From positions 256,001 to 320,000 of the IMG/VR virus record IMGVR_UViG_3300017700_000931: a stretch of 64,000 nt of DNA; one strand, written 5' to 3'. The notes beneath the pieces are model-generated. The model was not told the origin of the DNA. It saw only the letters and a list, made by a program, of their open reading frames with translations, and ran no database searches. Both the position numbers and the translations under genes were made by a program. The first letter of the stretch is position 1. Each line of letters begins with the position of its first letter. Source of the DNA: a virus. Its lineage: Duplodnaviria > Caudoviricetes. Shown here piece after piece: positions 33,568 through 44,091 of this stretch.

Positions 33568-33589
33568 ATTATAATATTATTTAAAAAAT

Positions 33590-33809
33590 GTTACTTATAA
33601 AACGTCGGATTCGTAAAAACTAAGTAACTTTTCTGTATGATGTTTTTAGCACCCAAGGTATCTTCAAGGAATAAATTCCTACATGAACACCAAACCTCCA
33701 CAGAAAATGTTTTCGTTCCAAGTACAGATGAAATGTTTATACCGCTACTCAAGTTATGTCGTTTCCGAGCTTTCTTTTTTGCAAGAGGAAGTAAGATACT
33801 GACCTCCCC
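33590..33809 (-). ncRNA. ~220-nt structured RNA candidate with a loop-to-distal pseudoknot
   Basis: 7-bp 5' hairpin whose loop GTATCTT matches distal AAGATAC; 8-bp, 7-bp and 8-bp further helices; a TCG-GAAA-CGA tetraloop. Confidence 0.5.
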
Positions 33810-33823
33810 ATTCACTGTTTAAC

Positions 33824-33953
33824 TGGTGTGCCACAAGGGAATCGAACCCCACACTTTCCCAGAACAACGCTCCGTCGAGCCTTTCATCAGGTTACCCCGT
33901 ATATTATTGTTTTAACATAGCTGTCCGGCCCACTAAAACTCAATATGCAGCAC
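33824..33953 (-). ncRNA. 130-nt tRNA-shaped RNA with encoded CCA and an enlarged anticodon domain
   Basis: GTGCTGC/GTGGCAC acceptor + ACCA, TTCGATT T-loop, CCGGA/TCTGG stem enclosing ~60 nt. Confidence 0.75.
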
Positions 33954-33960
33954 AAGTAAA

Positions 33961-34079
33961 AGATTGGTTCCCATTAAAAGTATCCATCAGCTCAACAAAG
34001 GGCCTCGTGTCCCAAAAAAGCAGATACTCCGTTCTTTATTTCTTTATTTTATTTGCTTGATTCGGTAAGGAACCAATCT
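33961..34079 (-). ncRNA. 119-nt structured RNA candidate
   Basis: AGATTGGTTCC/GGAACCAATCT 11-bp closing stem; internal AGTATC/GATACT helix. Confidence 0.5.
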
Positions 34080-34083
34080 TTTG

Positions 34084-34184
34084 TGGGCGCAGAGGGATTC
34101 GAACCCCCATCACTCTCATAGAAGTTGGACCAGTTGCAACTGGTTTTCCCCCTCAAGTCGACATCCCCTTAGTCGCACACGCCC
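34084..34184 (-). tRNA. atypical 101-nt tRNA-like gene (possible GCA anticodon in an extended, bulged arm)
   Basis: GGGCGTG/TGCGCCC-A acceptor, CGAC/GTCG D-arm, GGGGG-TTCGAAT-CCCTC T-arm; non-canonical middle. Confidence 0.65.
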
Positions 34185-34218
34185 AAATTAAAAAATAATG
34201 ACACCCATTTCTAAGTGG

Positions 34219-34661
34219 AATGATTAGCAAGGCATCAAACATCCAAGCACCCTATTTAGTTATCTCTATGGTAACGTTTTAATCATCTTACAATAAACAA
34301 CATCACCTTAGCGTGATTATAACGAATGGATTTGGGCCTTTAATGTCAGTCGCACGACGTGTTATATCCTCACCACTCCAATTCCGTACCCCCTAACTCA
34401 GATATACACCTGCTGACCATTACGTTTAACAGGGTCGCCAATTTCGGCTTAATTTTCATCTGAGGATTGGTTGCATCTATTGTTTGTTACTGCTTATCTT
34501 CAGTAGTCATTATTTTTATGAGTGAGTATGACGTATGCCGTCCTTTGGATTTACCCGCAGACCAACGGTTCTCTCACCCATGTTTTTATAAAAATAGAAT
34601 CACTTTCATAATCAGGACCATTTTTATTCGGTGTGCCTCACCAACATGATTACTAATCACT
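34219..34661 (-). ncRNA. ~440-nt large multi-helix RNA candidate
   Basis: End-to-end 10-bp + 6-bp pairing with G-U pairs on the minus strand; internal 9-, 7-, 6-, 6- and 5-bp helices; no long minus-strand ORF. Confidence 0.65.
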
Positions 34662-34697
34662 ATCTATTTTTCAATACTTCAAAGAACTATTCTATTG

Positions 34698-34787
34698 TGG
34701 CGATACTGTGAATCTAACACAGTTTTGCAAAAATTACAGAATCAGTATCTGTGTCATCTAGCCGTCCTAACATTAGACGATACCGCC
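34698..34787 (-). tRNA. atypical 90-nt tRNA-like gene (Glu/Gln-type body, CTG in the anticodon hairpin)
   Basis: GGCGGTA/TATCGCC-A acceptor, GTC-TAATGTTAG-GAC D-arm, 10-nt insertion, ACAGA-TACTGAT-TCTGT, CTGTG-TTAGATT-CACAG. Confidence 0.6.
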
Positions 34788-34792
34788 AATTA

Positions 34793-35754
34793 TTAATTAT
34801 ATTCTAGGATATTTTCAATTAAAACATCCCCAACTTCATTTTCAAAATCAATATTCTTTATGATGGTTTGATTCTCCAAAACCAATACATCATGTTCATT
34901 GAGGGCCATCACTCTTCGTGTTGGTTCACCGTCCTGATAAAGGTCAAACACCATTCCTCGTTTCATCACCAAGTTATTCATTACCTGTTATTCGCTTCCA
35001 TATAACTCCAATCAATAAGCAAATTGCTCCAATGATTAAAAGTTCTAGAAATGTTATATCACAAGGAAGTATCATAATATTTTAATCAATTACTACAACA
35101 CCAATGTTATTATCAATACAAAAATTTTGAATGGCTTCATCAAATAATGTTATATCGCCAAACATCCGGTAGACTCTAAGTGTGTTTGCACTTGGGGAAT
35201 ACTTACCATCAAAATGAACACAAGTTCCATTTACTTCAATTCGTTCTTGTCGGTAGGTTTTTCTATCGTCTTTCATTGGTTCATTTATTTTGACAAAGAT
35301 AAGTAGAAAATTTCAATCTACCAAATAAAAATCAAAATAATTTACAACAATAATAAAACTAATGCAGCAAAGCCGGATAATACATAGGCTGTAATACCAA
35401 CACTAATAACTCCATAACCAGTAAATCTGAGTTTTAATTCTTTAAAACCGCCATTATATAGGTCACTAATAACCCAATTAAATGTCCAGAAAAGTACTGG
35501 TATCATCCATGCAATCAAATATTCATCTTTCATTTTATGTTGTTTTAAATAACTACTTCACCATCTTCATCCAGTTCACACCACTCTTGAACACACTCAT
35601 CAAAAGTTTCTTCATCATCACAATCTGAATATGTAAAGATTCGACCATTCCAATAACATACCATCATTTCAGTTTCATTCCATTCAGGACATTTTACTAG
35701 ATATTTGGTATCTACTTTTAATTGATTTTCAGTATTAAATCTATGTTTGTACAT
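34793..35754 (-). CDS. small hypothetical proteins (34793-34981, 35082-35276, 35342-35533 membrane, 35545-35754)
   Basis: ORF track. Confidence 0.7.
35294..35325 (-). promoter_or_regulatory. promoter upstream of the ncRNA island
   Basis: TATCTTTG 35294-35301 and TTTG 35322-35325 on the minus strand, 20-nt spacer. Confidence 0.85.
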
Positions 35755-43905: not shown

Positions 43906-44091
43906 AATATGGAGGTAGCTGAAAATCCTAGATAAGAGTAGGCAAAACAAATAAATCACATTATGAAAACTTTTTTTAAAAATGTATTTACGATTGCAAC
44001 AGGAATTATTGTTGCACTTGTAATTATAGGTGGGATTGTTGTGGCTGTCCTTTATGCTACAAATCCTAATCTAATGAATTATTAGTAAATC

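Follow-up and report, generated by a model that had tools for sequence, protein, structure and literature searches.

A candidate structured RNA rather than a small protein gene at the end of a phage RNA island

Is the 74-codon open reading frame (ORF) at the end of a gene-free stretch in a phage genome a small gene, or does it merely overlie a structured RNA? The question arose in a 64,000-nt stretch of DNA (the window), taken from a phage record (positions 256001-320000) that is complete at 362,532 bases and has direct terminal repeats. On its minus strand, a gene-free stretch of approximately 1.2 kb (34787-33590) harbors three tRNA-shaped modules and a boxA-like sequence, and the last 220 nt of this island constitute the candidate RNA studied here (Table 1). 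The purpose of such clusters of tRNA-like and folded RNAs in giant phages has been open since the stable RNAs of T4 and T5. In the whole genome, 57 tRNA genes were counted, and elsewhere in the window a DUF805b RNA motif (43909-43944, plus strand) scored above the Rfam threshold. From phage promoters that match the TTTG/TAnnTTTG consensus of Bacteroidota (PMC6847099), together with Flavobacterium phages among the best cultured capsid matches (38% identity), we infer the phylum of the host, which is probably Bacteroidota.

Relatives were located via neighbouring proteins in Logan assemblies, which provided strains L252/L262 and L254/L258 as well as an identical copy (L260). Their comparison, together with the composition of the frame, confirmed the original prediction that the ORF may be incidental; it is not a gene. 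No gene caller lists it, no homologue was found, and it is absent from 15 billion called proteins, whereas its neighbours are present. Its codon score is negative and thus non-coding (-0.067, compared to 0.05 to 0.23 for 16 neighbouring small genes). Across the three strains, 8 distinct substitutions were found in the element, which correspond to 2 synonymous, 5 missense and 1 nonsense change in the ORF; 28% synonymous changes are expected without protein selection, so that the observed 2 of 8 fit the neutral expectation. A protein conserved with synonymous changes that break the helices would have told against the RNA; the relatives instead drop the protein through the nonsense change in L254/L258, and no named helix is broken. 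An overlapping plus-strand ORF of 61 aa also carries a stop in L254. A real small protein gene, for which the frame remaining open in two of the three strains and an A at position -3 could be cited, is extremely improbable; furthermore, its start codon abuts a strong hairpin. Two Shine-Dalgarno-like GGAGGT motifs lie in the element (33806-33801 and within 33699-33679, minus strand), with flanks that form a 74% direct repeat, and the second one is found 9 nt ahead of an ATG-TAG minigene. Both motifs are probably due to chance, given that this signal is not in use among Bacteroidota and that the first copy is altered in L254.

Table 1. Features of the candidate RNA and its surroundings (window coordinates).
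Feature	Position	Strand	Observation
Candidate non-coding RNA, 220 nt	33590..33809	-	97-99% identity retained in three strains, flanks change; no Rfam match
74-codon GTG ORF, not a gene	33591..33815	-	TAA at codon 15 in L254/L258
P1, 5' hairpin, 7-8 bp, 9-11-nt loop	33785..33809 (33809-33803/33791-33785)	-	pair probability 0.95-0.98 with pseudoknot strands held unpaired
Candidate pseudoknot, 5' strand (7 bp, long-range), in P1 loop beside P1 3' strand	33793..33799	-	duplex -5.4 kcal/mol
Candidate pseudoknot, 3' strand, in P4 internal loop	33658..33664	-	complementary to P1 loop strand
P2, weak hairpin with GAAA tetraloop cap	33751..33776	-	apex only 3 bp in window strain, -1.9 kcal/mol
P3, weak hairpin	33720..33750	-	5' strand can alternatively pair with P5 5' strand
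P4, long interrupted rod with 5-bp apical hairpin (33680-33667)	33629..33707	-	closing helix probability 0.90-0.94
P5, 3' 8-bp stem, 23-nt loop, followed by A and six U	33584..33628 (33628-33621/33597-33590)	-	-7.1 kcal/mol
Upstream tRNA-like element with CCA end	33824..33953	-	T arm and acceptor-like stem
boxA-like sequence near island head	34678..34688	-	two copies only in genome
Bacteroidota-type promoter (TTTG ... TAnnTTTG)	35294..35325	-	last full consensus match upstream of element

If not a protein, does the stretch encode a folded RNA? All helices and motifs named in the original prediction were found at their minus-strand coordinates, and the element indeed begins 14 nt after the preceding CCA, which ends at 33824. 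P4 comprises the helices 33707-33700/33636-33629 and 33692-33686/33644-33638, with two registers possible for the inner one. P5 includes only two G-C pairs, stops 22 nt short of the next start codon and received no call in a terminator scan; it is a weak terminator-like or 3'-protecting stem. When P1 is extended to 8 bp, 2 nt remain ahead of the 7-nt pairing strand in its loop and none after it, which is the usual geometry for stacking both stems of an H-type pseudoknot. In the unconstrained minimum free energy (MFE) fold, the 3' pseudoknot strand (33664-33658) has a local competitor helix. Of the 7-bp loop pairing proposed originally, the complementarity of the strands and the geometry stand, and one U-A to U.G change is in line with it; the pseudoknot itself, while plausible from the sequence, is unproven.

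Since these helices had been named before the relatives were seen, the substitutions provide a fair test of the fold. None of the 8 breaks a named helix, and the 3 that fall in helices are all pair-keeping and single-sided: G33804A in P1 (G.U to A-U), A33664G in the putative pseudoknot (U-A to U.G) and A33632G in P4 (U-A to U.G). In simulations, the probability of no break was 0.067, and that of no break combined with at least 3 kept pairs was 0.010. Four further changes were assigned post hoc to the two weaker hairpins, P2 and P3. In L254, two of them create additional pairs in the GAAA hairpin of P2 and a third disrupts one (-4.3 vs. -1.9 kcal/mol); P3 gains a pair through T33739G in two strains (-5.5 vs. 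-3.0 kcal/mol). Double compensatory changes were absent among the three strains; with three sequences and none of these, the support stays below what comparative analysis asks of a structured RNA.

The element is also conserved above neutral sites. It differs at 3 of 220 positions (1.4%) in L252 and 7 of 220 (3.2%) in L258, compared to 10-12% of the four-fold degenerate sites of nearby genes (55/462 in L252 and 13/128 in L258; Fisher p 5e-7 and 0.015, respectively). Furthermore, it is retained where its surroundings change: L252 has a different gene next to it, L258 has a truncated lipoprotein and has lost the HNH and ligase genes, and upstream island elements have been deleted or exchanged. 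However, 4% (L252) and 31% (L258) of other 220-nt windows are equally similar, and similarity as high as that of the element itself was seen in the spacer flanking it and, for L258, in the initial portion of the lipoprotein gene. Phage genomes recombine in patches, and recent recombination could account for the low divergence. The RNA ligase gene (PF09414; 31943-33335, minus strand) is absent from L252, and both the ligase and HNH genes are absent from L258; therefore, neither gene is tied to the RNA island. A role as a guide for the HNH protein is unlikely as well, as the element persists in L258 even though the HNH gene is missing there.

These similarities bear on the view that the element is a functionless spacer, or the decaying relic of an older RNA gene, with helices that arose by chance and a conservation that reflects recombination or linkage to the tRNA-like neighbour. 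In line with this, the overall folding energy is unremarkable (MFE -51 kcal/mol, z -1.54), and helices of at least 7 bp are not more frequent than in shuffled sequences (5 vs. a shuffle mean of 7.3). In 5.5% of shuffles, some part of the P1 loop had a perfectly complementary 7-nt segment. However, the combination of a strong hairpin with a 7-bp partner in H-type geometry was found in only 0.03% of shuffles and in 4 of 3294 220-nt genome tiles (0.12%). This descriptor was fitted after the element had been seen, with approximately 0.7 matches expected per 64-kb window and fewer than 0.01 in the 1.2-kb island; therefore, the match counts mainly because it is located inside a non-coding RNA island. 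Beyond this rare geometry, the pair-keeping substitutions in three different helices, the retention of the element where neighbouring elements are deleted or replaced, and its length of 220 nt, compared to 4-36 nt for the other spacers of the island, argue against a relic. We consider this view unlikely, with the restriction of the element to three strains among the points in its favour.

This restriction emerged from searches of 111 viral records, IMG/VR, JGI metagenomes, GTDB, INPHARED and PLSDB, in which no homologue beyond the three strains was found. DNA patterns (IMG/VR, JGI metagenomes and GTDB), ORF-seeded scans and blastn (INPHARED and PLSDB) returned chance matches only. Likewise, a covariance model built from the three near-identical sequences (R1) retrieved no homologue from the 111 viral records, which are mostly fragments, and the fetched loci, and no paralogue from the phage's own genome. 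With such a model and mostly fragmentary records, the reach of these negative results is limited. A context descriptor applied behind 624 T-arm sites in 3 Mb yielded chance matches only, and models of two neighbouring elements did not reveal a second island among approximately 78 records. L072/L073, L263, L264 and L346, the last of which is a chimeric contig, were looked at and discarded. A non-coding island of similar build was, however, identified in a complete 345-kb relative with a 74% identical capsid protein (G007, 98227-99400; L325, 18227-19400). Its three tRNA-like modules have rebuilt anticodon arms, and one of its folded spacers has a 7-bp terminal closing stem. This syntenic island contains no counterpart of the element and no sequence similarity to the island in the window. 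Being alike in build and unrelated in sequence, it suggests that the RNAs of such islands turn over quickly.

Taken together, the element is probably a structured RNA, whether it acts as a free molecule or as an mRNA leader. The original prediction to this effect is moderately strengthened by the pair-keeping changes in three strains; it has gained neither a compensatory double change nor a distant homologue.

We therefore asked which known RNA the element might resemble. Rfam covariance models gave no match at gathering score or at E 10 in two strains. The SmpB protein encoded by the phage (genome positions 323728-324156) had prompted the idea of a transfer-messenger RNA (tmRNA), and the element shares with the two-piece (permuted) tmRNA of alpha-proteobacteria a CCA end, a short intervening segment and a piece of approximately 220 nt starting with GGGG; in addition, an A-run followed by GGA AAC GAC resembles a resume site. 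However, the upstream acceptor strand is paired within the tRNA-like element, with the 5' end of the latter, and the 5' end of the candidate RNA cannot pair with it; G3.U70 and a conserved tag frame are missing, the island has no alanine-type 3' end, and neither covariance models nor ARAGORN gave a match at the element. The idea was dropped because a normal one-piece tmRNA was found at 73052-73434 of the genome (89.7 bits), to which the element aligns only weakly in local alignments. ARAGORN misses this tmRNA at its default score, and its tag frame is seemingly unusually long, with AVAA at the end.

[quoted passage not shown] Accordingly, the element could itself be a ribozyme from an undescribed class, which cleaves itself or acts in processing and, in the manner of theta ribozymes, removes the 3' trailer from the upstream tRNA-like RNA. 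This is very unlikely: the gap is 14 nt, the element is approximately four times longer, and a strict descriptor of the nested double pseudoknot (P1-P2-P3-L3-P1.1 with catalytic C) gave no match, with loose matches lacking the L3 pattern, P3/L3 or P1.1 in register. No hammerhead, pistol or intron core was found in the element either.

The stable non-decoding RNAs of phage tRNA clusters, namely species 1 and 2 as well as RNA C/D of T4 and RNA1-3 of T5, are approximately 70-145 nt long, with a tRNA-like 3' end and unknown function. Like these, the element is phage-encoded, presumably co-transcribed with tRNA or tRNA-like genes and probably released by tRNA-processing cuts; however, it is 220 nt long, has no T arm, acceptor stem or CCA, and features a candidate long-range pseudoknot between a loop and a bulge. 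The T-loop (TTCRA), which is present in the upstream neighbour, is missing from the element, so that a stable RNA of the T4 species 1 type or a Y RNA was rejected. GOLLD (RF02032) and ROOL (RF03087) are structured phage-associated RNAs with long-range loop pairings that are often found near tRNA genes, but they span 600-800 nt, and the element has no match to their covariance models even at E 10. Finally, riboswitch and T-box attenuators share with it a structured 5' domain followed by a U-tailed stem with a competing helix; however, no T-box consensus or aptamer covariance-model match was found in the element, and the downstream gene is not conserved.

This last likeness leads to the main rival to a free RNA, according to which the element is a cis-acting leader or attenuator that, after cleavage at the CCA side, forms the 5' UTR of the lipoprotein, HNH, RNA ligase and 163-aa genes. 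P1 would then stabilise the mRNA, and the competition of P5 (terminator) with the helix 33751-33744/33628-33621 (antiterminator) would set read-through; the pseudoknot might sense a ligand or protein to which this switch responds. The strand 33628-33621 can indeed pair either downstream or upstream, in two 8-bp helices that exclude each other and are equally stable (-6.3 and -6.4 kcal/mol), with P1, the closing helix of P4 and the apical hairpin common to both folds. In L252 and L254, the hairpin-row and long-rod folds lie within 0.5 kcal/mol ensemble energy of each other; in the window strain, however, the long-rod alternative has an advantage of 5.3 kcal/mol when the pseudoknot strands are kept unpaired, which makes for a poor switch balance. 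The substitutions are similarly divided, as C33608T keeps a pair of the alternative fold, whereas A33773T and A33755T break pairs of it. The short distance from P5 to the next start codon and the absence of a full promoter consensus until 31442 favour a leader; a downstream gene that differs between strains, a stem with a long loop and few G-C pairs, and the lack of a riboswitch family match speak against it. On balance, we regard a leader as possible rather than probable. Three lipoprotein homologues examined elsewhere had no large non-coding leader (one gap of 166 nt). Another homologue, on a phage-like contig (P0014, SRR20217185; 4868-7180), lies near reverse transcriptase (RVT_1) and DNA_pol_B_exo2 genes.

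We tentatively favour, at slightly less than even confidence, the reading as a free non-coding RNA (33809-33590) that is the last member of the cluster of tRNA-like and structured RNAs, and perhaps the sixth separate RNA of the island, as in the original prediction. As no coding, tRNA or known catalytic motif was found, such an RNA most likely works by its shape. We infer its transcription, processing and protein partner, along with the pseudoknot, as follows. Host polymerase would start at the promoter at 35325, load Nus factors at boxA and transcribe the island. tRNA-processing cuts behind the upstream CCA would free the 5' end of the RNA, leaving a G-rich 5' hairpin, and partial termination or exonuclease arrest may set the 3' end at the U-tailed stem. 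The RNA would fold as the hairpin row P1-P5, the loop of P1 clamping onto the bulge of the P4 rod via 7 base pairs, and could serve an RNA-binding protein of the host or the phage as a stable decoy or scaffold. Given the poor terminator in P5 and the lack of a full promoter consensus between 35325 and 31442, at least some transcripts must continue into the next four genes, which would then make the element part of their mRNA as well.

The neighbourhood of the element is variable. The upstream tRNA-like element shows real covariation, with one compensatory and six single-sided pair-keeping changes across the three strains. No other part of the island varies as much as its 5' half (33901-33953, minus strand), where 12-13 of 53 sites differ in L252 and L254; the long hairpin therein persists despite this variability, with one compensatory and five single-sided changes in these strains. 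In L258, the boxA-like sequence is retained directly behind the promoter, with the surrounding elements replaced; there (2050-2370), promoter and boxA are followed by approximately 300 nt of different non-coding sequence in place of the central elements, which is another unannotated RNA candidate. The first tRNA-like module (34787-34698) is missing in L252 (3536-3550), apparently through recombination between short GTATCG repeats at the module ends. The motif GTATC/GATAC occurs seven times in three island elements (33658-34787), and the P1 loop could therefore pair with strands of other elements too. In addition, the final six bases of the upstream tRNA-like element (33829-33824, including the CCA) have a complement in P4 (33692-33687, minus strand; -6.8 kcal/mol), a pairing that competes with an internal helix.

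More speculatively, and in our view doubtful at present, the element could represent a new class of phage RNA of approximately 220 nt. Its long-range pseudoknot would bind or sense some host component, such as a Nus protein, a ribosomal protein or an anti-phage RNA nuclease, and the RNA would alternate between two folds of nearly the same energy, serving either as a decoy or as a phage-borne switch that controls the nuclease and RNA-ligase operon. With three strains of an uncultured phage at hand, the element is a lead rather than a family for now. It nevertheless shows cleanly how a stretch that looks like a small ORF can in fact be non-coding; its fold differs from that of its tRNA-shaped neighbours, and it would constitute a new RNA family if the pseudoknot and a discrete transcript were confirmed.
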